A stretch of DNA of 59,866 bases from an uncultured candidatus Brocadiaceae bacterium (GTDB lineage Bacteria > Planctomycetota > Brocadiia > SM23-32), in assembly GCA_964572825.1 (NCBI GenBank), contig CAZNGS010000020.1, forward strand, positions 1 through 59,866. Reading direction: 5' to 3'. Under the pieces are notes generated by a model. It was given only the letters and a program-made list of their open reading frames with translations. It ran no database searches and had not been told where the DNA came from. Each line of letters begins with the position of its first letter. Position 1 is the stretch's first letter. The translations under genes were made by a program, and so were the position numbers. Of this stretch, positions 2,946 through 54,741 are shown piece by piece.

Positions 2946-3022
2946 GGGCGGATAGCTCAGCCGGCCAGAGCGCTTGCCTTACAAGCAAGAGGTTCCGGGT
3001 TCGAATCCCGGTCCGCCCACCA
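2946..3022 (+). tRNA. tRNA-Val (anticodon TAC), with an encoded CCA end.
   Basis: Cloverleaf GGGCGGATAGCTCAGCCGG...TTCGAATCCCGGTCCGCCCACCA. The 7-bp acceptor stem pairs GGGCGGA with TCCGCCC. The anticodon loop is CTTACAA and a T-loop GGTTCGAATCC is present. Confidence 0.85.
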
Positions 3023-8626: not shown

Positions 8627-9235
8627 ATGAACAAAAGAAGCACAGACGATTCCCCCTACAAGACGAGGCCGACGTTGCTGGAACGGGTCAAAGACTTCCG
8701 GGACGAACAGAGCTGGCAGGAGTTCAACCGGCTCTATCGACCCCTGATCCGGTGTTTCCTCTACAAGGTGGGCGTCCCGCGGGAACACGTCCCGGACCTC
8801 ACCCAGGAGGTCATGCAGATCGTGCTCAACCAGATCCCGGACTTCCAGTACGACCCGGAAAAGGGTTCTTTCCGGGGCTGGCTCTACGTGGTCACCGCCA
8901 ACCGCGCGCGCCGCTTCTACCGCCAGCACAGTCGCGGGGCCGACGGCCGGGGAGGGACCACCCACCAGGAACTGCTCCAGCAGTTGCCCGCCGAGGAACG
9001 CGTCAGCGAGATATGGGAGCAGGAATGGCAAAAACGCTGCCTGGAGGAGGCCATGAAAAAGGTGCGGGAACGCGTGAAAGAGTCCACCTGGGAGTCCTTC
9101 CGCCTCGCGACTTTGGAAGGTCTGCCGGCCGAAACCGTGGCACAGAAAACGAACCTGTCCGTCGGGCAGGTTTACGTCAATAAATCCCGCGTATTGAAAT
9201 GGCTGAGAGAAACTGTGGAGGCACTCAATGAATAG
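8627..9235 (+). CDS. ECF (sigma-70 family) RNA polymerase sigma factor.
   Basis: About 200 aa with sigma region 2 (LLERVKDFRDEQSWQEFNRLYRPLIRCFL) and region 4. Its stop overlaps the start of the downstream anti-sigma/kinase gene by 8 nt (ATGAATAG). Confidence 0.8.
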   Translation: MNKRSTDDSPYKTRPTLLERVKDFRDEQSWQEFNRLYRPLIRCFLYKVGVPREHVPDLTQEVMQIVLNQIPDFQYDPEKGSFRGWLYVVTANRARRFYRQHSRGADGRGGTTHQELLQQLPAEERVSEIWEQEWQKRCLEEAMKKVRERVKESTWESFRLATLEGLPAETVAQKTNLSVGQVYVNKSRVLKWLRETVEALNE

Positions 9236-11498
9236 CCAATCCAGCGGACCGGCCGGGGGATGTCCCCCGCCGGAGCTGATCCGGAGGGTGGCCGCCGGAT
9301 GCGCGGCGCCGGATGAAGAACAGCAGGTGGCCCGGCACCTCGATGCCTGCCGGTCCTGCCGGGAGGTGTTCGACGACGCGCTCCCCTTTCGTGAGCGCCT
9401 GGCGGAGCTGCAGGAAGCCGGCACGTCGGCCTTTGAATCGGCAGAGCAAGAAACTCCCCCTTGGGTGCGGCCGACCATCGTGCGGGATGCCGAGGGCCTG
9501 ACGCTGGCGGGCGGCCTGCGCCTGGGCAAGCCGCGGACGACGGATTACCTGGCCTCCCTGGGGGACTACGACATCGCCTCGGTGATCGGCCAGGGGGGGA
9601 TGGCGGTGGTGCTGAAGGCCTACGAGCCAAGCCTCGACCGCCACGTGGCCCTGAAGGTGATGAGTTCCGAATTGTGCGCCGACGAGGTGGCGCGCAAACG
9701 CTTCAAGCGCGAGGCCAGGTCCGCCGCGCGGCTTCACCACCCCAACATCGTCACCATACACACCGTCGGGGAGGATCGCGGCATACCGTTCATCTGCATG
9801 GAATACGTGCCCGGGCAGTCGCTGGCGCTGCTGATCAGCGAGCAGGCCCCCCTGGACGCCTCCACGGCCGCCAGATACGGCCTGGAGATGATCACTGCAC
9901 TGGGCCATGCGCACCGGCATGATATAGTCCACCGCGACGTGAAACCGGCCAACGTGCTGATCGAAAAGGAATCCGACCGCGCCAGACTGACCGATTTCGG
10001 CCTCACCCGGGGCGTGCAGGACGACGTGCGCTACACCCGGGAGGGCGCCGTGACCGGCACGCCCTGGTACATGTCCCCGGAACAGGCGATCGGCACGGCG
10101 AGCCTGGATGGCCGCAGCGACCTGTTCTCCGCGGGGGTGGTTCTGTTCGAGATGCTGGCCGGCGCCCTCCCCTTCCCGGGTCCGAACGGAAGGGAAGTGA
10201 TGGCAAAGATACGAAAGGCATCGGCGCCGGACCTCCGCGAGTTTGCTCCGGGCGTGCCGGCGCAGCTGGCCCGCGTGGTGGAAAAGGCCCTCCGCAAGCA
10301 GCCCGACCGCCGCTACCAGAAGGCCGAAGAATTCGCGGATGACCTGAGGGCTTTTCTGAAGGCATACTCCCCGACCATAGTCCTGGAAGACTCACCCGGT
10401 GTGAAAGGCAGTGCCTCGGGCTCCGCAGGGCGGAATGCCGGGGCCCGCGTGACGCGCTGCGCTGCCTGCTCGAAAAGTATCGCCAGCCGCCTGGGGGTGG
10501 CGGGCGAATGCGAGGTCTGCGGAGCGCCTATCTGCGCGCGGTGCTGGAGCGCCCGCGGCGTGCGTCGGTGCCGGGAACATCAGGACGCAGCGGAGGCCGG
10601 TGAACCGGCCGGACCCGCATCCGCACGCCAGGCCGAAGCCCCTGCCCCCGCCGGTGCGACGTCCCCCGATGATTCCCCCGAGGAGAGTGTCTCCGCGGAG
10701 GGGGCCCGGGTGGCGGAGGAAAGCTTTCTGCGCTGTTTCCGGAACGCTCTGGGCGAAATCTCCCAGGTGACCGATCCGATCAGCGGGCAGAAGATCGAAA
10801 TCAAAAGCTGGCAGGACATGCTGACCAGCTCCGACGATCTGGAAGATGTACAGTCTCTGCTCAAGCACCCCACGTCGGAGGAGGAAGTCCGTCGCCGCTA
10901 CCCCGTCCGGGCTCGGCTGGAGGCGCGGGCGGGGAGCAGGCGCCTCACCGGCCGGAAACCCCGCGTGGTCATCGTGGGCCGCTCCCTGTCGCGGATCGAG
11001 CAGTACTGTGGGCGCGGGCAAGACTCCCGGCCATTGACCCGGACCGAACTGGAGGCCGCCCTCAACGAGTCGGCCGCCCGGGCCCGCGAGCAGGAAACGT
11101 GGCGATTGCTGGTCCTGCACAGTCCCACCGGGTGGGAGCCCGATGCGCGGGCATACGTTACCGGAGACGGAGCAACGCCATTCCGCGATCGATACGTGAG
11201 TCCGGCCCTTTTCGACCGGGAAACGGAGGGATTCCTTTACAACCCCGGTGATGAGCGGCTGGCGGCCTACCGGGACGTTCTCTCGCCCCGCGTGGACCGC
11301 GCAGTGCTGGAACGGGCGCGACGGTTCGTCCTGGATTACGTGGACGTGCACGCGTCAGTGTCCCTGGACACCCTGTGCGCCGAGCTGTCCCTGGGGCGCA
11401 GGGCCGGCCTGCGCGTTCTGCGCGCGCTGGGTCAGGAACAGCGCCTGCGCCTCGAAGAGGTCCAGGGCGTGGGAACTGTCCTCTACAGGGCCTCCTGA
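9228..11498 (+). CDS. Anti-sigma-like zinc-finger protein fused to a Ser/Thr protein kinase, with a C-terminal extension of about 370 aa of unknown function that contains a Cys4 zinc ribbon.
   Basis: The N-terminus has HLDACRSCREVFDD, the anti-sigma zinc-finger motif. It carries a Hanks kinase domain (GQGGMAVVLKAY..ALKVM, HRDVKPANVLI, DFGL, GTPWYMSPEQ). The C-terminus has CAACSKS...CEVCGAPICARCW. Confidence 0.8.
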   Translation: MNSQSSGPAGGCPPPELIRRVAAGCAAPDEEQQVARHLDACRSCREVFDDALPFRERLAELQEAGTSAFESAEQETPPWVRPTIVRDAEGLTLAGGLRLGKPRTTDYLASLGDYDIASVIGQGGMAVVLKAYEPSLDRHVALKVMSSELCADEVARKRFKREARSAARLHHPNIVTIHTVGEDRGIPFICMEYVPGQSLALLISEQAPLDASTAARYGLEMITALGHAHRHDIVHRDVKPANVLIEKESDRARLTDFGLTRGVQDDVRYTREGAVTGTPWYMSPEQAIGTASLDGRSDLFSAGVVLFEMLAGALPFPGPNGREVMAKIRKASAPDLREFAPGVPAQLARVVEKALRKQPDRRYQKAEEFADDLRAFLKAYSPTIVLEDSPGVKGSASGSAGRNAGARVTRCAACSKSIASRLGVAGECEVCGAPICARCWSARGVRRCREHQDAAEAGEPAGPASARQAEAPAPAGATSPDDSPEESVSAEGARVAEESFLRCFRNALGEISQVTDPISGQKIEIKSWQDMLTSSDDLEDVQSLLKHPTSEEEVRRRYPVRARLEARAGSRRLTGRKPRVVIVGRSLSRIEQYCGRGQDSRPLTRTELEAALNESAARAREQETWRLLVLHSPTGWEPDARAYVTGDGATPFRDRYVSPALFDRETEGFLYNPGDERLAAYRDVLSPRVDRAVLERARRFVLDYVDVHASVSLDTLCAELSLGRRAGLRVLRALGQEQRLRLEEVQGVGTVLYRAS

Positions 11499-11526
11499 CA
11501 GTACATAGAGCGAAAGGAGACGAAGA

Positions 11527-12183
11527 ATGTCCTTGATCGAGAACATCAAGCAAGTCTTCCGGCGCGGCACGCGGCTGGAGGACGTGGACGTGGACGAGTT
11601 GACACGGGAGAAGGTGCGCGTCGAACAGATCGAGAGACGCATCTCCCGGGAATTCGACAGGACGGAGGGCCAGAAGGAGCAGTTGTTCCGGCGTGGCACG
11701 GACCGGACCGGCCGGCGATGGCGGACCATGCTGGCGCGCAAGATAAAGCAGCTCGATCGCCGCGCCCGCGCCAAAGAGCAACAGCTCGCCCTGCTGAGCA
11801 GGCATCTGCGCATCATCGACGGCCTGCTGCGTGTCAAGGAGAACCTGGCCACGCTCCGGCAGCTCGAGCTGGGGTCGGTCATCTCGGCCATGCCCCTCTC
11901 CGACCTGACCGAATACGTCGAGAAGGCCAGCGTGGAGGGACAGTTCGAGATGGAGAAATTCGCTCGACTGGTCGGCGTGCTTGACGGGACGCTGGATGCC
12001 GAAGACTATGAGGACGAAGCAGACGTCGAAGAGATCGTGGCGGCCATGGAGGAGGCACGGGCCGCCGAGGAAGACGGCCAGCCCGCGGAGCTTTCCTCCG
12101 CCTTCAACAGGGTCAACCGCGTGCTCCGCGAGCGACGCGTCCCCGAGGCCCGGGAAATGGAAACGGGAGCCCCCGTTAGCTGA
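11527..12183 (+). CDS. Coiled-coil Snf7/ESCRT-III-like protein.
   Basis: 218 aa, all helical, with a basic N-terminal half and an acidic C-terminal half (DAEDYEDEADVEEIV...). The core LARKIKQLDRRARAKEQQLALLSRHLRIIDGLLRVKENLATLRQLELGSVISAM resembles the Snf7 alpha2-alpha3 region ALQALKRKKRYEKQLAQIDGTLSTIEFQREALENA...AAKAM. Confidence 0.5.
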   Translation: MSLIENIKQVFRRGTRLEDVDVDELTREKVRVEQIERRISREFDRTEGQKEQLFRRGTDRTGRRWRTMLARKIKQLDRRARAKEQQLALLSRHLRIIDGLLRVKENLATLRQLELGSVISAMPLSDLTEYVEKASVEGQFEMEKFARLVGVLDGTLDAEDYEDEADVEEIVAAMEEARAAEEDGQPAELSSAFNRVNRVLRERRVPEAREMETGAPVS

Positions 12184-12191
12184 GGACGGCC

Positions 12192-13358
12192 ATGAGCGTG
12201 GATCTGACCGGCAGTTTGTATGCGGCCTATCGCGGCGCCGTGCGGCGCGGCCAACAGCTCCGTCGCGTGGGCGAGGATCGGCGGGCGGCCGCCGCCTTCC
12301 GCAGTGCCGCGCGGCTGGGCGCCCGCTATGGCGCCTCCGGCGCGGGAACGGCCGAAAGGGAGCGGAGGCTGCGCCAGAGCCGCCGGCTTGAATGGCTGGC
12401 CGACGAACTGGAGCGTGGCCCGTCCTCGACCTGCTCCCCCCCGGGGGAGCGCCGGCAACCCGAAAAGGAGGACGAACTGACGGCCCGGATCGAGGAGCTG
12501 ATCACACGGACCGAGCTCACCTGGGACGACGTCGGCGGCCTGGATGAGGCGAAGTCGCAGCTCCGCACCGCCTTCGCCCTGGCCGTGGCGCGCAAGCCCC
12601 GGGGCGTGCGGATTGACACGGCGCCCAACATCCTGCTCTACGGCCCTCCGGGCACCGGAAAGTCACTGCTGGCGGTGGCCGCCTCGAATTGCCTGGACAC
12701 CACGTTCTTCAGCGTGAAGCCCGGCGGCGTGCTGTCGAAATGGTTCGGCGAATCGCCCCGCCTGGTGACACGGCTCTACCAACTGGCCCGGCGAAGGGCG
12801 CCTTCGGTGGTGTTCATCGACGAACTGGAATCGCTCTTCCCGTCGCGAGACCGGGCGCAGTCCGGCGCCGAGTGCCGACTCCTTTCCGCCCTCCTCAGCG
12901 AGATCAGCGGGGTGCGCGCGGGAGGGAGCGAATCGCCGGTCTTCACCCTGGGCGCCACCAACGCCCCCTGGTTGATGGACGAGGCGGCCCTCAGTCGGTT
13001 CGGCAGGCGCATCTACGTGGGCCTGCCCGATGAAGGGGCGCGGCGTGCCATCCTCCAGATTCACCTGCACCGGAACGGGCACCGACTGGATTTCCCCCTG
13101 GGGCGGCTGGTGCGTGGCACCGCCGGATTCAGCGGCCGGCAGATCGCCGACCTCTGCACCCGGGCGGTGGAGAGCATGGTGGCCGCGCGCAACCCCGACA
13201 TCGAGCAAGCAGCCTCCGGGTGCCGGCGCGCGGTACCTTACCGGATCAGGACGCGGCCCCTGCAATGGCACGATTTCGAGAAGGCGCTGGACCGAATGCA
13301 ACCCGACACCTCGTCCGGCACGCTCCGCAGGTTCGAGAACTGGCAGAGACCCCGATAA
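12192..13358 (+). CDS. Vps4/CdvC-like (meiotic-clade) AAA+ ATPase with an N-terminal MIT-like helical domain.
   Basis: Walker A is LLYGPPGTGKS. LSKWFGESPRLVTRLYQLARRRAPSVVFIDELESL aligns with Vps4 [35 protein letters not shown]. The clade-specific motif LGATNAPWLMDEAALSRFGRRIYVGLPD aligns with Vps4 [28 protein letters not shown]. The N-terminal 75 aa are a basic/Ala-rich helical segment like a MIT domain. Confidence 0.75.
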   Translation: MSVDLTGSLYAAYRGAVRRGQQLRRVGEDRRAAAAFRSAARLGARYGASGAGTAERERRLRQSRRLEWLADELERGPSSTCSPPGERRQPEKEDELTARIEELITRTELTWDDVGGLDEAKSQLRTAFALAVARKPRGVRIDTAPNILLYGPPGTGKSLLAVAASNCLDTTFFSVKPGGVLSKWFGESPRLVTRLYQLARRRAPSVVFIDELESLFPSRDRAQSGAECRLLSALLSEISGVRAGGSESPVFTLGATNAPWLMDEAALSRFGRRIYVGLPDEGARRAILQIHLHRNGHRLDFPLGRLVRGTAGFSGRQIADLCTRAVESMVAARNPDIEQAASGCRRAVPYRIRTRPLQWHDFEKALDRMQPDTSSGTLRRFENWQRPR

Positions 13359-13370
13359 AAGGAAACAGAC

Positions 13371-13964
13371 ATGGGACTGTTCAAATCAAAGACGCAACGC
13401 AAGCTGGAAAGAGAGATCAAGGCCCGCCGGGGTAAAACCCGGATCAAGCGGTTCATCAAAAGCACCGAAAAGGTGCGCAAACGATACTGGGACCTGGCGC
13501 GGGATGCCCTGCGGCTCGGCGACCGGGAGCAGTTCCGCCCGCTCGCCGCGGCCTACGTGCGCGCCGACCAGCAGGTGAACCGCTGGCGGCGCTACCTGCT
13601 CCAGTTGGAAACGCTCCAGGTGCGCCAGCGCGAGGTCAGCGCCACCGGCGAGTTCCTGGAGAGCGTCTCCGCCATGACCAGTTCCATGCTGCGCGGCGCA
13701 GACGCCGAGCAGGTGGCCGCCATGCAGGCGAACCTGGAGGAAGCCCTGGCCCGGTCCCGCGCCGTCGAGGACATGCTGTCCGTCGCGCTGGACGCCAGCG
13801 CGGACTCTATCTTCGGCACGGAAGAGCTCGACGAAGGCCAGCTCGAAGAGCTCTCTCAGGTCATGCTGGCAGACGAGGAGGAACAGGACGAAGTGCGCGG
13901 AGAACAGCCCATCGCCGCCGGCCTGAGGGAGATCGAGCGCGAGATGAGGAGGGAGATGGAGTGA
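13371..13964 (+). CDS. Snf7/CHMP (ESCRT-III)-like protein.
   Basis: 197 aa with a basic N-terminal helix (MGLFKSKTQRKLEREIKARRGKTRIKRF), like the CHMP MGLFGK N-termini. The core DLARDALRLGDREQFRPLAAAYVRADQQVNRWRRYLLQLETLQVRQREVSATGEFLESVSAMTSSMLR parallels the CHMP2A segment MAKQGQMDAVRIMAKDLVRTRRYVRKFVLMRANIQAVSLKIQ...AMKGVTKAMGTMNR. The acidic C-terminus ends in a possible MIM-like helix (GLREIEREMRR). Confidence 0.55.
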   Translation: MGLFKSKTQRKLEREIKARRGKTRIKRFIKSTEKVRKRYWDLARDALRLGDREQFRPLAAAYVRADQQVNRWRRYLLQLETLQVRQREVSATGEFLESVSAMTSSMLRGADAEQVAAMQANLEEALARSRAVEDMLSVALDASADSIFGTEELDEGQLEELSQVMLADEEEQDEVRGEQPIAAGLREIEREMRREME

Positions 13965-15070
13965 GCGACCCCCTGCAGACAGCCCTGCGTCACCTGGACC
14001 TGGCCGTCGAGACGCGCCGCCGGGGGGAACGCTCCGCCGCACGCACGCACTACCTGCGGGCGGCCCGCTGCATGCTGCGGGCCGCCGCCGGCAGCACGGG
14101 TCAGGCGCGCGGCCCACGCCTGCGGAAAGCAGGGGAGCTGCTCGATCGGGCGCGACGGCTCAGCAGCGCGGCCCCCCGGGCCGGCGAGGATGCGGAGCAG
14201 AGCGCCCCCCGGCCGGTCCGGGAGCGCGGCGCCGTCCGGTTCGATGACGTGGTAGGGCTGGAGCGGGCGAAACAGGAGATAAGACTCCGCCTGATCTACC
14301 CGCTGCAGCATCCCGAGAAGGCGGCGCGCTACGGCATCCGCCGGGGTGGAGGGATTCTCCTTTACGGTCCCCCCGGCACGGGCAAAACCCTGCTGGCAAG
14401 GGCCGTGGCGGGGGAAATCGATGCCCCCTTTTTCACCGCCTCTCCTTCCACCATCATGTCCCGCTGGGTGGGTGAGGCAGAACAGAACGTCGCCCGGCTG
14501 TTTGCCCGTGCGCGGCGGCATGAACGGGCCGTGATCTTCCTGGACGAAGTGGAGGCGCTGCTGCCGGCGCGGGCGCTGAGCACTTCCGACGTGATGCGCC
14601 GGGTGGTGCCCCAGATGCTGGCTGAAATGCAGGGGTTCACCCGGGGCGAGGGCGCGCTGCTGTTCCTGGCCGCCACCAATGCCCCCTGGGCCCTGGACCC
14701 GGCCGCGTTGCGCCCGGGACGGCTCGACGTGCGGGTCCACGTGGGGCTGCCGGACCGCGATGCCCGGCGGGCCATGCTGCGGCTCAACCTGCAGAAGCGC
14801 CCGGTGGGGCCGGACGTGAACCTGGATGTGCTGGCGGAGAAAACCGGGAGATGCAGCGGCGCGGACCTGGCGGACCTCTGCGAGCGGGCCGCCGCCGCGG
14901 TGTTTATCGAGAGCATCCGCAGGGGCGTCACGCGACGCATCCGCATGGGCGACCTCCTGTCGATGCTCGCGGAAATGCGACCGTCCGTATCGGCCCGGAG
15001 CGCGGAGGCCTACGAGCGATGGAACCAAAAGGCAGGGAGTTGGTTCGAAAATGCTGCGGCTTCTCGGTAA
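13961..15070 (+). CDS. Second Vps4-like AAA+ ATPase with an MIT-like N-terminus.
   Basis: Walker A is LLYGPPGTGKT. IMSRWVGEAEQNVARLFARARRHERAVIFLDEVEAL and LAATNAPWALDPAALRPGRLD match the Vps4/spastin clade. The N-terminus LRHLDLAVETRRRGERSAARTHYLRAARCMLRAAA...KAGELLDRARRL is MIT-like. It overlaps the upstream gene by 4 nt (ATGA). Confidence 0.75.
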   Translation: MSDPLQTALRHLDLAVETRRRGERSAARTHYLRAARCMLRAAAGSTGQARGPRLRKAGELLDRARRLSSAAPRAGEDAEQSAPRPVRERGAVRFDDVVGLERAKQEIRLRLIYPLQHPEKAARYGIRRGGGILLYGPPGTGKTLLARAVAGEIDAPFFTASPSTIMSRWVGEAEQNVARLFARARRHERAVIFLDEVEALLPARALSTSDVMRRVVPQMLAEMQGFTRGEGALLFLAATNAPWALDPAALRPGRLDVRVHVGLPDRDARRAMLRLNLQKRPVGPDVNLDVLAEKTGRCSGADLADLCERAAAAVFIESIRRGVTRRIRMGDLLSMLAEMRPSVSARSAEAYERWNQKAGSWFENAAASR

Positions 15071-15503
15071 AGTATTGACGTCGCGGTTCACTGCCGCCGG
15101 GGTGATAGCGCTCCTGGCGTGGCAGGGCTGGACGGCGATGGGTCCCGCCGCCACGCCGAAGATGACCGCACGGCAGAGGCCGGCGCCGGCGGACCCCGCC
15201 TCGCGGGAGCAGACGGGCCCGGCGTTTGCGTGGCCGGCCCGGGCGCTCACGTGGCTGGCGGTGGTGGTGATGCTGCCCCTGGCGGTGGCGCCCCTGACGC
15301 GCAGAATGCTGGAGGCGGAGTCGAACGCCATGAACCTGGCCCTGCTGGCCGGGCTGACCGCCGCGGGCGGGTTGACGGCGTGGGCGCTGATGGAATTCCG
15401 GTTGGCCGGGTGGTGGGCCGCGCCCCTGCTGGCGCTGGCCGCGGGGGTGGCGGGTGTTTACAACTGGTTCGTGCTATCGAAACAGGAACAACTCAGGCAC
15501 TGA
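15051..15503 (+). CDS. Small integral membrane protein with 3-4 predicted TM helices.
   Basis: Strongly hydrophobic segments (VIALLAWQGW, WLAVVVMLPLAVAPL, LALLAGLTAAGGLTAWAL, WAAPLLALAAGVAGVYNWFVL). The start is uncertain and overlaps the upstream AAA gene by about 20 nt. Confidence 0.45.
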   Translation: MLRLLGKVLTSRFTAAGVIALLAWQGWTAMGPAATPKMTARQRPAPADPASREQTGPAFAWPARALTWLAVVVMLPLAVAPLTRRMLEAESNAMNLALLAGLTAAGGLTAWALMEFRLAGWWAAPLLALAAGVAGVYNWFVLSKQEQLRH

Positions 15504-15525
15504 GACGCACGGGAGGGAGTCCGTC

Positions 15526-17256
15526 ATGGCACTGTTCAGCAAGACATGTCCTTCATGCGGCGAGAAAGTCGGCCGGGCAGATTCGTTCTGCCCCCATTGC
15601 GGCACCCCGGTGCCGGGGACGAGGTTCGACTGCCCACACTGCGGTGCCACGGTGCCTGGAGAGGCGCAGTTCTGCCCGGAGTGCGGGAAGCCCGTGCGCG
15701 TGAGCCCGGAGGAATCCAGTTCCACGGACGCCTTCAACCGGTGGCGCCGGGAGGAGGGCGTGTTCGCCCGGCGCATAGATGCCACCGAACTTCGGGGCAA
15801 GGCGGGCAGGGGACTGGTCATCGAACCCGGCTCCCGCGCCCTCGTCTTCCAGGCCGGCAGACTGGTGGGAGGAGTCGAACCGGGCACCTACGACCTGACA
15901 AAGGAGGTCGAGGCAGAGGGCGGCCTGGCGGCGCGTGCGCTGCGGCTTCTCCGGCGCATCTTCCTGGGTGAAAGGGACGTCGCCCCGACCACCGCCGTGC
16001 TCATGGACGCAGGCGACGTGACCCTCACCGTGGGCTATACGGACCTGCGCACCAGCGAGGACGCCCGGGTCAACGCCACGTTCCAGATGGTGGTGCGCCT
16101 GGGGGAGCCGTCCGCGCTTTTCCAGAACCTGATGCACGGCCGACGGGAACTGAGCCACCAGGAGCTGGAGGAGCTGCTCTCCAGCGAGAGCGCCAACACG
16201 GTGCAGGCCCACGTGCGGGGTGTCTCCGTCAGGGAACTCTACGGCAACACGGAACTGGCCGATGCCCTGGAGCAGGACCTGCGTGAGAACGTCGGCAAGG
16301 CGCTGGAGGGCTACGGCCTCCAGCTCGTGCGCCTGAAATTCGTGCAGTTCTACGGCGATGCCTACGAGAAGGCGCGCGATGCCCACGAGCAGACGTTCAT
16401 GGCCGAGGAGATGGTCGCGGAAAGGGAGCGCCGCGCCGAGCTGAGGCGGCGCCTCCGGGATGTTCTGACCCAGAACAAAATGGATGAATTCGCCTCAAGC
16501 GCGGAGCTGGAGGAGTTCATCCGCCAGCAGGAGCACGAGCTGGGAATGAAGGACGTGTTGCGCCAGGAGGAGATGGAGGAGCTCAAACGAGCACACGACC
16601 AGAAAAGGCTCGAGGCCCGGCACGTGCTGGAGATGCTGGAGGTCAAGCAGAAGGGCGAGATCCTCCAGGAGAAACTCAAACAGCGTGAGGCCGTCTCCGA
16701 CGCAGAGCTGAGGGAAAAGGACAAAAAACTCGACTTTGCCCTGACTGCCCGGGGCAAAAAGGACGAACTCGACCTGCAACGCCAGCGCGAGGAGCAGGCC
16801 CTCGCCGAGGAGGCCAGGGAGGACGAAGCGCGCCGCGAAAGGGAGCGCCTCGAGACCATGCAGAACCTGAGCGAGGAGCAGATACTGGCCCTCGCCGCCA
16901 GGGAATCCCCCGAAGCGGCCAAAGCCATGGTCGAACGCTACAGGGCCCAGGCCTCCGGAAACGAGGAGGTCAAGGAGCTCTACGAGCGGATGGTGGACCG
17001 ACTGGAGAGGATGTCGCGCGAAAGCATGCGCGCCCAGGCCGACACCGCCGCCGGCCGCATCGGCGCCGAGCGTCAGAGGGCCGACCAGGCGAAGGAAATG
17101 TCCGAGAAGGCCATGGAGGGCATGGCCCACGTGGCCGGTGCCAGGGCCGGCGCCCAACCGGCCGAGGCCGTGGAAGCGCGCTGCCCCAACTGCAACAATC
17201 CCGTCGGGACGGATGACGCCTTCTGCGGCCATTGCGGCCACAAACTCAAGGAATAG
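15526..17256 (+). CDS. Double zinc-ribbon protein with an SPFH/band-7 (flotillin-like) domain and a long coiled coil.
   Basis: The N-terminus has CPSCG...FCPHCG...CPHCG...FCPECG. The SPFH-like core is GLVIEPGSRALVFQAGRLVGGVEPGTYDL ... VRLKFVQFY. A long E/R/K-rich coiled coil follows. The C-terminus has the zinc ribbon CPNCNN...FCGHCGH. An RBS GGGAGGGAG lies upstream. Confidence 0.7.
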   Translation: MALFSKTCPSCGEKVGRADSFCPHCGTPVPGTRFDCPHCGATVPGEAQFCPECGKPVRVSPEESSSTDAFNRWRREEGVFARRIDATELRGKAGRGLVIEPGSRALVFQAGRLVGGVEPGTYDLTKEVEAEGGLAARALRLLRRIFLGERDVAPTTAVLMDAGDVTLTVGYTDLRTSEDARVNATFQMVVRLGEPSALFQNLMHGRRELSHQELEELLSSESANTVQAHVRGVSVRELYGNTELADALEQDLRENVGKALEGYGLQLVRLKFVQFYGDAYEKARDAHEQTFMAEEMVAERERRAELRRRLRDVLTQNKMDEFASSAELEEFIRQQEHELGMKDVLRQEEMEELKRAHDQKRLEARHVLEMLEVKQKGEILQEKLKQREAVSDAELREKDKKLDFALTARGKKDELDLQRQREEQALAEEAREDEARRERERLETMQNLSEEQILALAARESPEAAKAMVERYRAQASGNEEVKELYERMVDRLERMSRESMRAQADTAAGRIGAERQRADQAKEMSEKAMEGMAHVAGARAGAQPAEAVEARCPNCNNPVGTDDAFCGHCGHKLKE

Positions 17257-17267
17257 CGGGGGATCGA

Positions 17268-18620
17268 ATGGTGGATCAGGAGGCACCCGAACACGCCGCA
17301 TCCCGCCCCTGCCATAACTGCGGCGAGACCGCGCCGGCGACCGCCACCTACTGCACTCGATGCGGAGCCGAGATTGAGCCCGAAATCCTCCTGGAGGTGG
17401 AGACCGGCCGGCAGCACGTGCGGGACCATGCCTCCCAGCTTCGGTTCCGGCTGAGCGGCAACGTGGAGCCGGGCTGCGGCGCGGCCCTGGAGGCCGTGCT
17501 CAGCGGAGGCCCCGGCGAGATCGAACAGCGGGCCCCGGAACGGCGGCAGACCGGTCGGCTGGACGGAAAGGGCGGGCAGGCCATCTTCGCATTCCGATTC
17601 CGCCCGCTGGTGGCGGGCGAGTTTCCCCTGGACCGCCTGCGCCTCAGCCTCCTCCGTGCGGACAAACCGGATGCGGCGCACCGCTACGACCTTCCCGATC
17701 GCAGCTTCTTCGTGCGCGTGGCCGACCCCGAACTGGAGGGCCGCCAGCAGGCCGGCATCCGCATCGAGGGCGGCATTCACGTAAACGTCCAGGACATCCT
17801 CGCCAGCGACATGGGCAGCCTGTTCGACATACGCACGGCAGACAAGGCACAGCAGGGCCGCGCCGACACCGGGTGGCAGCCCATCGAACTCCGCTTTACG
17901 GGGACAACGGATGCGGCCCCCTGCCAGGCGGAGGGGTGCGACGGCCCCGCAGCCGCCGATGAGGCATTCACCTGCGCGCACTGTTCACGCACGCTCTGCC
18001 CTTCCCACGCGGACCCCGCCCGGCCGGGCCACTGCACCGCGTGCGCCGAGCAGGCCCGGGAGGAGGAGTTCGCGGAGGCCATCTCTGCCGTCGGCGCGCA
18101 GCCACGGCCCGACCCGGCGTCGGCCGTGCTGGGTAAGACCACCCACGCGAAGCCGCCCTTCCGCGCCCGCATCTGGACCGAAGGGGGCGGCGGCCCCGCC
18201 CGGAGGGACCTGGCGGCCGTCCCCCGCCGGAGCAAAGGGGTGTTCCGGATCGGCGATTCGTTCGCCCTGAACGCCCAGTCGGAGAGAGACTGCTACCTGA
18301 CCCTTGTGGACGTCGGCACCAGCGGCAACGTTTACCTGCTGCTGCAGAATCATCCGCTCCGGGCCGGCGCGCCGGTCAGCCTCTCCGGCCCGGACAAAAG
18401 CAAGCGGTGGCTGGTGAACGGCCCGCCCGGCGTGGAGCGCATCAAGGCGTTCTTCACCCTCCGGCCGGTCTCTCTGGTTCCGGAGAAGCGATCTTTCGCG
18501 CAGCTCTCCCCGGAGGAGACGCGCGAGATCAGCCGACACGTTTCAGCGACTCGCGGCCGGCTCGGGGAACTGCCCGCCGAGGCATGGACCGACGCAACCT
18601 GCGAGTTCGTCATCAAGTAA
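17268..18620 (+). CDS. Zinc-ribbon protein with a conserved central domain of unknown function and a C-terminal DUF4384-like domain.
   Basis: The N-terminus has CHNCG...YCTRCG. The central ~190 aa are paralogous to the N-terminal half of the gene at 18828-20213. The C-terminus CYLTLVDVGTSGNVYLLLQNHP...KAFFTL matches the DUF4384 pattern. Confidence 0.6.
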   Translation: MVDQEAPEHAASRPCHNCGETAPATATYCTRCGAEIEPEILLEVETGRQHVRDHASQLRFRLSGNVEPGCGAALEAVLSGGPGEIEQRAPERRQTGRLDGKGGQAIFAFRFRPLVAGEFPLDRLRLSLLRADKPDAAHRYDLPDRSFFVRVADPELEGRQQAGIRIEGGIHVNVQDILASDMGSLFDIRTADKAQQGRADTGWQPIELRFTGTTDAAPCQAEGCDGPAAADEAFTCAHCSRTLCPSHADPARPGHCTACAEQAREEEFAEAISAVGAQPRPDPASAVLGKTTHAKPPFRARIWTEGGGGPARRDLAAVPRRSKGVFRIGDSFALNAQSERDCYLTLVDVGTSGNVYLLLQNHPLRAGAPVSLSGPDKSKRWLVNGPPGVERIKAFFTLRPVSLVPEKRSFAQLSPEETREISRHVSATRGRLGELPAEAWTDATCEFVIK

Positions 18621-18797
18621 GAGCCTCTAACATAATGCCGCCCGTCATGAGGTCGAGCGAGAAGCCCGAGGGCAAGGCGGCAGGCGCAAAACGCCCGGAG
18701 GCGTGGCCTGAGCCACGTCGAGGACGTTTTGCGCCGACAACGCAGCCATTGGGGCTTCGCAGCCGGCCGCAATAGGTCGTCATTCTGTTAGAGGGTC
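18621..18797. repeat. A 177-bp intergenic element flanked by imperfect 17-bp inverted repeats and containing a nested GC-rich hairpin.
   Basis: Left end GAGCCTCTAACATAATG and right end CATTCTGTTAGAGGGTC match as reverse complements at 15 of 17 positions. An internal hairpin runs GGCGCAAAACG...CGTTTTGCGCC (18683-18735) with an inner stem CGTGG/CCACG. Confidence 0.4.
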
Positions 18798-18827
18798 TAA
18801 GTCGCTCGGACAGACACGGAAGCAATC

Positions 18828-20213
18828 ATGGCACGGACATGCGACAGGTGCGGCCAACCGGCGAGGGAAGGAGACCGCTTCTGCCGGTCCTGCGGGGAGG
18901 AGCTGGCGCCGGCGGTGGTGCTGGAGGTGGAGACGGGCCGCACCCACGTGCAGGGCCACGCCTCGCAACTCCGCTTCCGGGCCACCAGCAACTGCAGCTT
19001 CCCCTGCGGCGTAACCCTGTCGGTCCTGCTGCACGGCCGGGGAGACCACGTGGAGCAGCCGGCGCAAGAGCGCGAGCAGTGCTGCCAGTTCCAGCGCCGC
19101 GGCGAGCAGTTCATCTTCAGCTTCCCGTTCCGCGGGCTCATCCCCGGCGAGTTCCCACTCGACAACCTGAGCATGACGGTCACCCGACCGGACCGGCCGG
19201 GGGAGGCGTTCATCTATGAACTGCCGGACCGCAGCCTGTTCGTGCAGGTGGCGGACCCCGAGCTGGAGCATTCGGGAAGCGGCATGTCCATCAGCGGCGG
19301 CATCCACCTGGACCTCTCGCACCTGCGGGAGATATACGGCAGCGACGTGACGGACCTGTTGAGGCTCAGCTCCGATGCCACGCCCGAACACCCGCAGCAG
19401 GAGCGGGGCTGGCAGCCCATACGCCTGCGGCTGGCCGAGCGGGTCGAGGGCGGCCTGATGCCCGGTGAGCTGGTGGTGCGCCTGCCCGGGGACGTGCCCC
19501 TGGAGCTGGTGCGGGTCGGGCCAGGCCGTTTCACCATGGGCAGTCCGCCGGACCGGGGTCGAGAGGACGAACGCCCCGCCCATCCCGTGAGCATCACCTG
19601 CGATTTCTACATCGGCAGGTTCCCCGTTACCCAGCAGCAGTACGAGGCCCTGGCGGGCGAGAATCCCTCCGCCAGACCGGGTCCCCGGCGGCCGGTGGAA
19701 CGCGTTTCCTGGCAGCAGGCCGTCGAGTACTGCCGGGCCCTCCGCGCGTATCTGGGCCGCAGCCCGGACGCCCTGGAGGAAGGGTCAGTTGAAGTGGAGG
19801 AGGTGGACCTGCCAACGGAGGCGGAGTGGGAATACGCCTGCCGCGCGGGCTCGGACACGGCCTACTGCTTCGGGGACGACCGCACACTGCTTCGCGACTA
19901 CGGCTGGTACGACAAGAACTCCGATCATGAAACCCATCCGGTGGGCGAGCTCAAGCCCAACGCCTGGGGCCTGCACGACGTGCACGGAAACGTGTGGGAA
20001 TGGTGCAGGGATTACTACGCCCCGGATTATTACACGACGGAGGCCGCCGAGGACCCGCAAGGGCCCGAGACCGGCGAGAGGCGCGTGCTGCGGGGCGGCT
20101 CGTGGAGCTATTATGCCCGCGACTGCCGCTCGGGCCGGCGTCACAGCGCGCTGCCGACGGACCGAACGCCGAACTACGGCTTCCGGGTCGTGGCGCGTGT
20201 TTTGCAGAGTTGA
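18828..20213 (+). CDS. Zinc-ribbon protein with the conserved paralogous domain fused to a C-terminal FGE-sulfatase (SUMF1/formylglycine-generating-enzyme-like) domain.
   Basis: The N-terminus has CDRCG...FCRSCG. The segment [21 protein letters not shown]...[12 protein letters not shown]...[16 protein letters not shown]...[10 protein letters not shown] is paralogous to the 17268-18620 gene. The FGE domain has RFTMGSP...[14 protein letters not shown]...[13 protein letters not shown]...[24 protein letters not shown]...VLRGGSW. Confidence 0.75.
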
Positions 20214-20226
20214 ACATGGAGACTGA

Positions 20227-21324
20227 TTGATGCGCTGTGAGCATTGTGGCGCAGAGGTGTCTTCGGAGGATCGGTTCTGCCCCCGGTGCGGTCGGCGGGT
20301 CGAGGCCGGCGGCGACATCCTGGATGAAGTTAACGGCGAACTGGCTGAAATGGAGGCGGAGCTGGATTCCTACCTGGAGCAGGCAGTCGGCCCGCTGGAC
20401 GTCGAGGTGGACCCGGATGCCCGGGAAGATCAGCCCCGGCGGGCGAAGCCCCGGGCCGCGCGGGCCGAGCTGGTCCATCAGCAGGAATGGCTGGCCCTGC
20501 TGGACGTGCCGCCCGAGCAGGTGAGGCAGTCGGCGAACTTTGTGTTCGACTCGCCCTCCATCCAGGGCAATTCCCAGTACGCGGAGCGCGTCGCGCGGAT
20601 CGACTTCGTCTACACGCCGGACCACGACGAGGTGAACGCCTTCGCCACGGACGATCCGGCCGCTCTGCCGCCGGACGTGTCGGCCACGGTGCCGGCGGTG
20701 GTCTACCGGGCAGGCCTGGCGCGGGCCATCCGGGTCGTCTCCCTGGCGCTGGCCGGCCACCTGCGGGCAAGCCGCGGGCAATCGTCCGATGCGGAGCCGG
20801 CGGTCCTCGTGCAGACCTTCCGCGAGGTGGGTGCAGAGATCGTCCGCCTGGAGGGCGGTTTCCCGCGGGAATCGGCCGGTCGGATCTGCCGGGACGTGGT
20901 GGCGCCGCTTCTGCCCGACGACGCGTCGGCCCACCTGTCCCGGGCCCGGTCGTGCTCGGCCGCCATGGACATGTACGTGGTCGCACACGAGGCGGGGCAC
21001 GTTGCCCTGGGACACACGCTCAGCGACGCGTTGAACTACGATATGTCACGCAACCAGGAGCGGGAGGCGGACAGCTTCGCCGCGACGGCGCTCTCCACGT
21101 GCCCCTTCAGCCAGTACATGTTCCTGGGTCACGCGCTGGTGGCCGCCGTTTTTGCCTGGACCGATCACGCCGCTGCACTGGCTGAGGAATCCACGCATCC
21201 GCTGGGACGGGAGCGATTTGCCAACGCCCTGACCTGCAACCGGGAGGCGGCCCGGGAAGCGGCGGAAGAGTTCGGCCTGACCCGAGAGCGTCTCCGGCGG
21301 ATGCTGCCGCCGGAGGAGAGGTGA
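20227..21324 (+). CDS. Zinc-ribbon protein with a C-terminal ImmA/IrrE-family-like (HEXXH...E) zinc metallopeptidase domain.
   Basis: The N-terminus has CEHCG...FCPRCG. The C-terminus VAHEAGHVALGH...NQEREADSFAATAL matches the HExxH plus downstream EAD motif of ImmA/IrrE (COG2856)-type peptidases. Confidence 0.55.
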   Translation: MMRCEHCGAEVSSEDRFCPRCGRRVEAGGDILDEVNGELAEMEAELDSYLEQAVGPLDVEVDPDAREDQPRRAKPRAARAELVHQQEWLALLDVPPEQVRQSANFVFDSPSIQGNSQYAERVARIDFVYTPDHDEVNAFATDDPAALPPDVSATVPAVVYRAGLARAIRVVSLALAGHLRASRGQSSDAEPAVLVQTFREVGAEIVRLEGGFPRESAGRICRDVVAPLLPDDASAHLSRARSCSAAMDMYVVAHEAGHVALGHTLSDALNYDMSRNQEREADSFAATALSTCPFSQYMFLGHALVAAVFAWTDHAAALAEESTHPLGRERFANALTCNREAAREAAEEFGLTRERLRRMLPPEER

Positions 21325-21388
21325 AAGACCTCCATCAATATCCGAAAGAGGCCCGGAGACTTACCGCAGGAACGGAAGGGCGCAGACC

Positions 21389-22768
21389 ATGAGTGTAGTG
21401 CTCGAGGTGACCAGAGGTCGGCACGCGGGCAGGGAGTTCAAGCTCGACGGCCACGAGACCTTCATGGTAGGGCGGGGGAACAAGGTGCAGTTTCGTATTC
21501 TGGGCGACCGCTTCTTCTCGCGCTATCACTTCATGATCGAGGCCAACCCCCCCGAGTGCTTCCTGCGCGACCTGGGCAGCACGAACGGGACCTTCGTCAA
21601 CGGCCGCCGGGTGCGCCAGGTCCACCTGAGCGACGGGGACCGGATAAGGGGCGGCAAGACGGAGCTGGTTGTCCACGTGCGTGAGGAACCGGCCGAGGCG
21701 GCCGCATCGGAACCAGCACCCGGGCCGGCGGCCGTCGGCGCGCCGGACATGGGCACCACTTTCTCGGCCCGGGCCCCCGACAGGGGCGCGGGCAAAGAAC
21801 TGCATTGCGCCATCTGCGGCAGGATCGCCGAGGAGACGCGCCTGGGCGACCTGGAGGACACGCGCTTGATCAGCTATGTGTGCGAGGACTGTCACCACGA
21901 GAACCGGGACGAGACGCATCCCATCCCCACCTTCGAGGTGCTCGACGAACTGGGAAGGGGCTCCCTGGGGCCCGTCTACAAGGCCAGACGCCTCAACACC
22001 GACAAGCTGGTGGCCCTGAAGGTCGTCCCGCCCCGCCTGGGCGTCAACCCCCGGGCCGTAAAGCTGTTCCTGCGCGTGATGCAGCTCAGCGGCGGCCTCG
22101 ACCATCCCAACATCGTGCCGCTGGTCGAGATGGGCGAGTCGGGCGGCGAGCTGTGGATCGCCACGGAGTATGTCGACGGCGTGGACGCGGGGGAACTCAC
22201 CGCTCGCCGGGGTGGCACGCTTCCCCCGGCGGAGGCGGTGGACATCACCTGTCAGGTTCTGGACGCGCTGCACTACGCCCACCGGCTCAATCTGGTCCAC
22301 CGCGACGTGAAACCCACCAACGTCCTGGTCACCGGCGAGCCGGGGGACTACGACGCCAGGCTGGGCGATTTCGCCCTGATGAAAAACATCGACGAGGCCG
22401 GCCTCAGCGGCATCACGCGCAGCGGTGAGGTGCGGGGCACCGTGCCTTTCATGCCGCCGGAGCAGATCATCGACTGCCGCTTCGTCAAACCCGCCGGTGA
22501 CATCTACCAGGTCGGCGCCACGCTCTACTGGCTGCTGACGGGCGAGTATGCGCACGACTTCGAGGCCCGGGACAAACGCGGGGAGGTCAAGGACCCCTTC
22601 CTGGTCATTCTGGAGGACCCGGTGGTGCCCGTTGGCGAGCGGGAACCATCGGTCCCGCAAGCTCTGGCGCGGGTGGTCGAGACGGCGCTGGCGCGCGCGC
22701 CCGAGGATCGGTTCGAATCCGCCGGCGAGATGAAAGCCACGCTGCGGAAGGCCCTCGGCTCAGGGTGA
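21389..22768 (+). CDS. FHA-domain Ser/Thr protein kinase.
   Basis: An N-terminal FHA domain (FMVGRGNKVQFRILGDRFFSRYHFMIE...GSTNGTFVNGRRV) precedes a Cys-rich segment CAICG...CEDCHHE. A Hanks kinase follows (LGRGSLGPVYKA, ALKVV, HRDVKPTNVLV, DFAL). Confidence 0.8.
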   Translation: MSVVLEVTRGRHAGREFKLDGHETFMVGRGNKVQFRILGDRFFSRYHFMIEANPPECFLRDLGSTNGTFVNGRRVRQVHLSDGDRIRGGKTELVVHVREEPAEAAASEPAPGPAAVGAPDMGTTFSARAPDRGAGKELHCAICGRIAEETRLGDLEDTRLISYVCEDCHHENRDETHPIPTFEVLDELGRGSLGPVYKARRLNTDKLVALKVVPPRLGVNPRAVKLFLRVMQLSGGLDHPNIVPLVEMGESGGELWIATEYVDGVDAGELTARRGGTLPPAEAVDITCQVLDALHYAHRLNLVHRDVKPTNVLVTGEPGDYDARLGDFALMKNIDEAGLSGITRSGEVRGTVPFMPPEQIIDCRFVKPAGDIYQVGATLYWLLTGEYAHDFEARDKRGEVKDPFLVILEDPVVPVGEREPSVPQALARVVETALARAPEDRFESAGEMKATLRKALGSG

Positions 22769-53424: not shown

Positions 53425-54741
53425 TCAGCCCGAGGTCACGCCGTAGAGGTTCCGGGCGGTGCGGATGAACAGGCGGCCGCCGCTGACGGAGATGGTGGCC
53501 TGGCAGGGGCCTTCGCCGGTCTCCAGCCGGGAGAGCTCCCGGAATTCATCCCCCGCCGCGAGCACGAAGACCGTGCCCCGTTTGTCGATCAGGTATATCT
53601 TCCCGTCGGCGCCGGTGGGCGAGGCGCGGAACGGTCCCCTGCCCTCCAGCTTGTGGTGCCAGATGACGCGGCCGGTCTTAGGCTCCGCGCAGGCCATCTC
53701 GCGCTTGCCGTCGTGCAGAAAGTAGATGCGCCCCCGGTAGAGCAGCGGCGTGGTGACGTCCGGGGTGAACTCCCCGTGCTGCCAGGCCAGCCAATCGTTT
53801 GACAGTTCGCCTTTGCCTCCCGTCTTCAGGGCGAAGAGGGGCCGGTGCCGGGGCCGAACCACGAAGATCAGCCCGTGCCCCACCACGGGGGAGGTCACGA
53901 TGCGCTGCCATATCTTGCGGTCCGGCGGGGTGAACCACCACCGCCACAGCTCGGCGCCGGTGGCGGCGTCATGGCCCGTCACGCACTCCCCGGCCGCCAG
54001 GATGATCTCTTTGCGCCCCGCCTCCTCGCAGGGCATGGGGGTGATGTAGGCCTCCAGCGACTCGTCCTCGGCGTCGGTGGGCCGCGCCTGTCGCCACAGC
54101 GTCTTGCCGGTCTCCGGGTCGAGCGCCAGCAGGAAGGATTCCAGCGGACCCTCGCGCGCGTCCTCGCGCTTGTAGCGGCCGGGTGTCTCGTTCTGGAGCA
54201 CCGGTATGTAGAGCCGTCCCTCGTAGAGCAGCGGGCTGGAGCTGTAGCCGAATTTGATCACGAAATTGCCGTAGTCCTCCTCCAGGTCCCGGCGCCAGAG
54301 CTGGTTACCCTCCAGATCGAAGGTCACCAGCACTCCCGTGCCGAAAAAGAAGTGCACCCTTTGCCCGTCCGTGACCGCCGGGGGCGTGGATGCGTTGTTA
54401 CCGCCCATCATTTTGCGGTTTTTGCCGCAGACTTTCTGCCACCGCACCTCGCCGGCCGAGGCATCCACGCAGAACGCCAGCAGCTCGTCCGTCTCGCTGT
54501 CCAGGGAGGTCACAAAGACGCGGTTCTCCCATATGACGGGCGTGGAGTACGCCGGGCCCGGCATGGGGGTGTTCCAGACGTTGCGGCCGTCCATGTTCCA
54601 TGATTCGGGCAGGCCGGACTGGCCGGTGGACCCGTTGAGGCGCGGCCCGCGCCACTGCGGCCAGTTCTCCCCGAACGCTGCTCCGCCCGCCAGGACGAAA
54701 CAGACGCAGGTTGCGACGGTCAACAACCTTCCCATCTTCAC
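53425..54741 (-). CDS. Secreted PQQ-like beta-propeller repeat protein (BamB-like fold).
   Basis: Signal peptide MKMGRLLTVATCVCFVLAGGAAFG. Repeated W..G....STP..........G.L.A.D..TG..W motifs (NWPQWRGPRLNGST..., GEVRWQ, GNQLWRR, GKTLWRQ, GAELWRW, GRVIWHH). Confidence 0.75.
   Translation of the reverse strand: MKMGRLLTVATCVCFVLAGGAAFGENWPQWRGPRLNGSTGQSGLPESWNMDGRNVWNTPMPGPAYSTPVIWENRVFVTSLDSETDELLAFCVDASAGEVRWQKVCGKNRKMMGGNNASTPPAVTDGQRVHFFFGTGVLVTFDLEGNQLWRRDLEEDYGNFVIKFGYSSSPLLYEGRLYIPVLQNETPGRYKREDAREGPLESFLLALDPETGKTLWRQARPTDAEDESLEAYITPMPCEEAGRKEIILAAGECVTGHDAATGAELWRWWFTPPDRKIWQRIVTSPVVGHGLIFVVRPRHRPLFALKTGGKGELSNDWLAWQHGEFTPDVTTPLLYRGRIYFLHDGKREMACAEPKTGRVIWHHKLEGRGPFRASPTGADGKIYLIDKRGTVFVLAAGDEFRELSRLETGEGPCQATISVSGGRLFIRTARNLYGVTSG

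Follow-up and report, generated by a model that had tools for sequence, protein, structure and literature searches.

A 177-bp element with IS5-family termini, very probably a MITE, separates two partially paralogous genes at a TAA stop codon

The window (the whole stretch of DNA that was analysed, 59,866 nt) contains a 177-bp element that is very probably a non-autonomous MITE of the IS5 family (IS427/IS402-like; IS5_3 in NCBIfam), bearing only the terminal inverted repeats and moved in trans; we put the probability of this reading at about 0.9. The sequence-only reading had named a MITE-like insertion as one of several possible identities, and this identity is now favored by a duplication of TAA at the ends of the element, by termini of the IS5-family type, and by a second copy at an unrelated locus.

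Structure of the element and its insertion site

The sequence of 18300-19100 bears out the earlier description in every base. The element occupies a 207-nt gap in an array of plus-strand genes extending from 9228 to 22768. As had been proposed from the sequence, this is the sole large gap of the array, the others ranging from -250 to 64 nt. The proposal that the element lies between two paralogs also stands, in a narrower form: the flanking genes are partial paralogs whose similarity is limited to the N-terminal 200 aa (45% identity, E = 2e-47). The coordinates of the element, its parts, and its neighbors are given in Table 1.

The 17-bp terminal inverted repeats, described earlier as near-perfect, are complementary at 15 of 17 positions, with 2 mismatches in the window sequence. 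When up to 3 mismatches are allowed, the window has no other matches to this terminus (0.00 expected from shuffles), and the inverted repeat can be extended to 24 nt at 83% (18620-18643 and 18775-18798). The element as a whole is an imperfect palindrome, and an alignment of 182 nt with its reverse complement shows 67% identity.

Table 1. Positions of the element, its parts, and the adjoining genes in the window
Feature	Position	Strand	Remarks
Upstream host gene, Zn-ribbon + DUF4384	17232-18620	+	outside the element; target of the insertion at its TAA stop
Left target-site duplication, TAA	18618-18620	+	also the stop codon of the upstream gene
Whole element (probable MITE)	18621-18797	.	177 bp; non-coding; near-palindromic long hairpin
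Left terminal inverted repeat, GAGCCTCTAACATAATG	18621-18637	+	same 17-mer, with 2 free positions, found elsewhere
Central 53-nt hairpin, arms GGCGCAAAACG / CGTTTTGCGCC	18683-18735	.	family-specific core; motif kept in the second copy
Apical 8-bp stem-loop, GGCGTGGC-CTGA-GCCACGTC	18700-18719	.	from the MFE structure
Right terminal inverted repeat, CATTCTGTTAGAGGGTC as written	18781-18797	-	reads GACCCTCTAACAGAATG inward
Right target-site duplication, TAA	18798-18800	+	27 nt ahead of the downstream ATG
Downstream host gene, Zn-ribbon + FGE-sulfatase domain	18828-20213	+	outside the element

A direct repeat of TAA, missing from the sequence-only reading, brackets the element, and its length and sequence agree with those of the duplications found at other elements, full-length or short, that have these termini (see below). 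Excision in silico of the 177 bp together with one TAA restores the sequence ...AAG TAA GTCGCTCGGACAGACACGGAAGCAATC ATG, leaving a spacer of 27 nt that is typical of the gaps in the array; the predicted junction of the empty site reads ...ATCAAGTAAGTCGCTCGG.... The insertion increased the stop-to-start distance from 27 to 207 nt. Both flanking proteins are unchanged because the duplication regenerated the stop codon, and the insertion left the ribosome-binding region and start codon of the downstream gene intact; any coupling of translation over the initial 27-nt spacer is lost. The search for an orthologous empty site was unsuccessful, as the genes most closely related to the downstream one (L121 and L122 in our numbering of loci; 63% and 57% identity) have other upstream neighbors and are not syntenic upstream.

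BLASTN and pattern searches detected no further copy of the element within the 59.9-kb window, and no other MITE-like inverted repeats were found there. The BLASTN count of copies thus covers the window, with 1 copy, to which the metagenome contig described below adds 1. A tblastn search for an IS5-type transposase found none in either the element or the window; a match at 54034-54225 (E = 0.02) is antisense to a PQQ beta-propeller gene and was rejected.

Gene content of the array

Several parts of the plus-strand array could be recognized by their domains. A Ser/Thr kinase gene (9228-11498) lies ahead of genes encoding AAA ATPases (12192-13358 and 13961-15070) and a Snf7/ESCRT-III-like protein (13371-13964; Pfam Snf7, 27.2 bits at a cut-off of 27.3, E = 3.6e-6), an arrangement in 12192-15070 that resembles ESCRT-III/Vps4 genes. 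The window comprises a complete NCBI MAG contig, and the names of homologues weakly suggest that this MAG belongs to the Planctomycetota. The region from 15454 to 22768 encodes successive proteins that each combine an N-terminal zinc ribbon with a differing module (SPFH/Band7, DUF4384, FGE-sulfatase, or M78-like peptidase), and an FHA and Ser/Thr kinase protein comes after this run. The DUF4384 and FGE proteins have the 200-aa N-terminal module in common, to which no function is assigned. The sole RNA gene detected in the window at the Rfam gathering level is that for tRNA-Val (anticodon TAC), at 2946-3022.

Full-length IS5-family elements with the same termini

The 17-mer GANCCTCTAACANAATG, written out as the pattern GA(G/C)CCTCTAACA(T/G)AATG, was scanned in 185,579 species represented by one genome each and was found at at least 119 loci; by our own estimate, about 1000 chance matches of the 15-base pattern are expected in the 596 Gb covered, and single matches therefore mean little. 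The matches listed nonetheless depart strongly from a random set: 68 are directly preceded by TAA or TTA, approximately 35 have an inverted partner terminus, and several MAGs hold three to five matches apiece. Thirteen of the listed matches are located within about 110 nt of the ends of MAG contigs (e.g., L002, L010, L053, L055, L061, L102, and L105), which points to a multi-copy repeat that breaks assemblies. A literature search on the terminal sequence returned nothing relevant.

Four of the listed terminus pairs (L074, L075, L029, and L118) enclose 879-892 bp. Identical TAA or TTA flanks were found on three of these four full-length elements, and each of the four has a pair of ORFs that overlap, one in the 0 and the other in the -1 frame. 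L074 was the one full-length element that was translated and scanned, with its ORFs joined at the overlap. The fused product matched the NCBIfam model NF033580 'IS5 family transposase' (IS5_3) at 227.5 bits (cut-off 110, E = 1.9e-67), as well as the Pfam domains DUF4096 and DDE_Tnp_1, and its TAG stop codon lies within the right terminus. [quoted passage not shown]

Among plasmids, the closest named relative of the L074 transposase was that of Burkholderia IS402 (approximately 64% amino acid identity), which we take to be a member of the IS427 group of ISfinder. The IS402 copy is 914 bp long, has the termini GAGACGGTTTCAAAAAG, and is flanked by a TTA duplication; it shares with the window element 11 of 17 terminal bases, the GAG start, and the 3-bp duplication of TTA/TAA. 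IS1237, an IS5-family element of the IS427 group, is 899 bp long, has ends starting with GAGGTGGTTTCAG... (GAG...), and duplicates TTA (TAA) (PMC2516522). Elements of the IS427 group have two ORFs that are joined by a programmed frameshift (PMC3281130). IS402 and IS1237 are full-length insertion sequences, whereas the window element has 177 bp, no transposase, and a palindromic, unrelated interior. Rather than an insertion sequence in its own right, it is a non-autonomous derivative of the IS402/IS1237-type family or a parasite on it. Its interior showed no similarity to any of the loci listed (at least 119), including the full-length elements, and no matches were detected in plasmids or viral contigs.

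Short elements with the same termini

Approximately 30 further terminus pairs among the matches listed enclose 51-456 bp. The interiors of these short elements show no relationship among themselves or with that of the window element. Perfect TWA duplications were found on at least 12 of them, i.e., L019, L021, L024, L046, L056, L064, L076, L104, L106, L110, L119, and the window element. Among the matches listed, most hosts of short elements belong to the Planctomycetota, with the remainder in Actinomycetota, Zixibacteria, Bdellovibrionales, Beta- and Gammaproteobacteria, and Verrucomicrobia. The same 17-bp terminus is thus common to IS5-family elements and to many unrelated MITE interiors in at least five phyla.

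Two of the short elements have unusual structures. In a Zixibacteria MAG (JACQFV010000139.1; L056, 5884-6149), two elements of about 131-132 bp lie end to end with one TTA between them, either as a tandem or through insertion of one element into the target duplication of its neighbor. The 51-bp element at 1095-1145 of L115 consists of hardly more than both termini and might either represent a minimal derivative or have arisen by deletion.

A second copy of the family

We scanned metagenome contigs for the terminus followed, after 35-60 nt, by GGCGCAAAACG and found one contig, Ga0180434_10160023. The copy on this contig (L120, 1369-1546, minus strand) is 178 bp long and is collinear with the window element, with approximately 85% identity over the full length and unrelated flanks. 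It is located directly 3' of the TAA stop of another gene (...VRLESAD*) and is followed by TAG, i.e., by the duplication with one change. The two genes on either side of it are convergent and do not form an operon. Since a collinear copy occurs at an unrelated site, the short form has moved as such. The termini have 2 mismatches in the window copy and 1 in the second copy; because of this drift, it is doubtful that the element is currently mobile.

Fold of the element and evidence for an RNA function

The whole element folds as a single long hairpin with an RNA MFE of -103.2 kcal/mol, compared with -72.0 +/- 4.4 kcal/mol for shuffled sequences (z = -7.15; 0 of 200 shuffles were equally stable). 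The minus strand folds at -97.0 kcal/mol (z = -6.5). The 53-nt hairpin with an inner stem-loop that had been read from the sequence was recovered at the center of this structure, with 14-nt arms that are 93% complementary. In the window copy and the second copy, the MFEs were -103 and -109 kcal/mol for the sense strand and -97 and -95 kcal/mol for the opposite strand, respectively.

Inspection of the sequence revealed no T-run after 18735 or 18797, and the earlier statement that the structure is not a simple intrinsic terminator agrees with this result for both the central hairpin and the element as a whole. The sole candidate from a terminator scan, a stem of 5 bp at 18764-18779 followed by the tail TCATTCTGTT, was weak and lies within the right arm; the combination of hairpin and U-tract that characterizes an intrinsic (Rho-independent) terminator was absent from the element. 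A search of Rfam 15 over 18300-19100 at E<=10 gave no meaningful match, so that of the two checks that had been suggested for an RNA, the fold proved stable while no Rfam family was identified. A sub-threshold match to Hammerhead_HH9 at 18977-19047 (19.2 bits; gathering score, 52; E = 0.067) lies inside the downstream coding sequence and is most likely due to chance; two miRNA models that appeared in the same search were dismissed as noise.

The two copies differ at 12 predicted pairs when the MFE structure of each copy is projected onto the other: 7 pairs are broken and 5 are kept, 3 of the latter with a one-sided and 2 with a double change. RNAalifold reported 2 compensatory pairs for the two copies; its consensus retains compatible pairs only, and the projection of each copy's own MFE structure is the unbiased count. 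On this count, we do not regard structural selection on the hairpin as supported.

A sigma-70-like sequence (TCGTCA-18 nt-CATAAT) was found at 18607-18636, with 1 occurrence at 0.0 expected in shuffles. Its -35 hexamer is in the flank, its -10 hexamer is in the left terminus, and its orientation is toward the interior of the element and the downstream gene; it is a consensus match, and the promoter type used by the host may differ.

The sequence-only reading had further suggested a processed small RNA or an attenuator-type structure separating the expression of the two halves of the cluster. Neither received positive support: no Rfam match was obtained at E<=10, the genes around the second copy are convergent, and broken pairs outnumber those kept between the copies. 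An evolved or dedicated regulatory RNA function of the hairpin is unsupported because there is neither an Rfam match nor a U-tract and because stem pairs are broken between the copies. The long hairpin would instead be a by-product of the palindromic build of the element. It is presumably co-transcribed in the operon mRNA, where it could incidentally alter processing, stability, or translational coupling, and such co-transcription probably has side effects.

Association with TAA stop codons

Of the 36 TAA-flanked ends in the loci recovered for the matches listed, 15 directly adjoin an ORF of 100 or more codons whose stop is this TAA. For comparison, the corresponding value is 3.7% for all TAA trinucleotides of the same loci and approximately 6% for TWA sites outside long ORFs, the latter figure coming from a greedy and rather rough prediction of genes. 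Among the matches listed, 40 of 71 flanks have C at position -4, which suggests a CTWAG-like target, and a target of this type is reminiscent of IS5 and PIF.

These values would fit a scheme in which insertion sequences and MITEs ending in GANCCTCTAACANAATG prefer TAA stops, maybe within a CTWAG-like target, and in which the hairpin has been co-opted at the present site to uncouple the expression of the paralogs, but we consider this combined scheme unlikely. The enrichment at stop codons probably results for the most part from selection against disruptive TWA insertions, which is the simpler explanation. If the scheme were true, a duplication that regenerates the stop codon would make such sites a 'safe harbor' in gene-dense, GC-rich genomes, and the insertion described here would split two paralogous genes of one operon. 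Whether the occurrence of the elements at stop codons reflects target choice or selection is a modest question that can be tested.

Identity and origin of the element

The element resembles MITEs in its size (177 bp, within the range of 50-500 bp), in its lack of coding capacity and of a transposase gene, in its terminal inverted repeats, and in its direct target-site duplication of the TWA type. Its ends match those of autonomous elements of 879-892 bp in other genomes, for one of which (L074) an IS5-family transposase was identified, and the family occupies a second insertion site. We consider the element to be selfish DNA and the representative of a MITE family that is new and unnamed and belongs to a well-known kind.

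From what is known of the family, the transposase would bind the 17-bp ends, and a DDE transposase acting in trans would then excise or copy the element and integrate it at TWA by means of a 3-bp staggered cut. We infer that such binding and cleavage took place and that the partner transposase may be present in the source genome. At the present site, the TAA stop of the upstream gene served as the target, with the duplication restoring the stop.

Three other explanations were weighed against this MITE reading. The MITE might have been co-opted by its host, with the 180-nt hairpin acting as an RNase III/E site, an mRNA stabilizer, or a barrier that uncouples the genes, or with CATAAT providing a new internal promoter. 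Such a role would be in keeping with the stability of the sense hairpin (-103 kcal/mol, z = -7.2), with the better folding of the sense strand in both copies (-103 and -109 vs. -97 and -95), with the position of the element inside a co-directional array, and with the sigma-70-like match, which joins flank and terminus where 0.0 are expected; Correia and ERIC elements have effects of this kind in other bacteria. However, the host context is not conserved, as the second copy lies between convergent genes, and 7/12 of the differing pairs are broken compared with 5/12 kept. Together with the lack of an Rfam family and a U-tract, and with a weak consensus match in a host whose promoter type may differ, these observations make co-option unlikely, and an effect of the hairpin or promoter, if there is one, would be incidental to the insertion and not a sign of selection.

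A solo relic, left when the interior of a full-length IS5-family element was deleted in place, would also carry the termini of a full-length insertion sequence and would occur once in the window, as observed. The collinear 178-bp copy elsewhere, which is approximately 85% identical and has its own flanking TAA, nevertheless indicates that the short form spread, and the interior is palindromic, as is typical of MITEs, and unlike that of any full-length element recovered; we therefore regard deletion at the site as very improbable. We see hardly any prospect that the sequence is a stand-alone structured RNA or palindromic repeat unrelated to transposition, such as an sRNA, a riboswitch-like leader, a retron msr-msd, or a REP/BIME, given that the termini and the 3-bp duplication match the insertion sequence family exactly and that no Rfam match was obtained at E<=10, even though the stable nested hairpin and its flanking inverted repeats would be expected of such a sequence. 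Neither a reverse transcriptase nor a RAYT adjoins the element, its neighbors encoding Zn-ribbon/DUF4384 and Zn-ribbon/FGE proteins; the retron candidate in particular was rejected in view of the lack of an RT domain in these neighboring genes (Zn-ribbon/DUF4384 and Zn-ribbon/FGE-sulfatase).

The MITE from the window can be compared with several known groups. The Correia elements of Neisseria and the ERIC/IRU elements of enterobacteria are MITEs of 100-200 bp with inverted termini and a long hairpin that lie between the genes of operons; for Correia elements, both processing by RNase III and promoter effects have been demonstrated. The window element is similar to both groups in size, inverted termini, co-transcribed hairpin, and operon position, but differs from them in its termini, its target duplication (TA for Correia), and its presumed transposase. 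Tourist-type MITEs and PIF/Harbinger elements are eukaryotic and depend on a transposase superfamily related to IS5. They resemble the window element in the 3-bp TWA duplication and the extended CTWAG-like target, whereas their termini are different and PIF/Harbinger elements require a Myb-like second protein.

Implications

For annotation of this region, the 207-nt gap is to be read as a transposon scar and not as a regulatory leader, the flanking genes as having originally been 27 nt apart in one operon, and the stop codon of the upstream gene as one half of the target duplication. More generally, the 17-bp terminus could serve as a probe for cataloguing such elements in metagenome-assembled genomes, where assemblies break.
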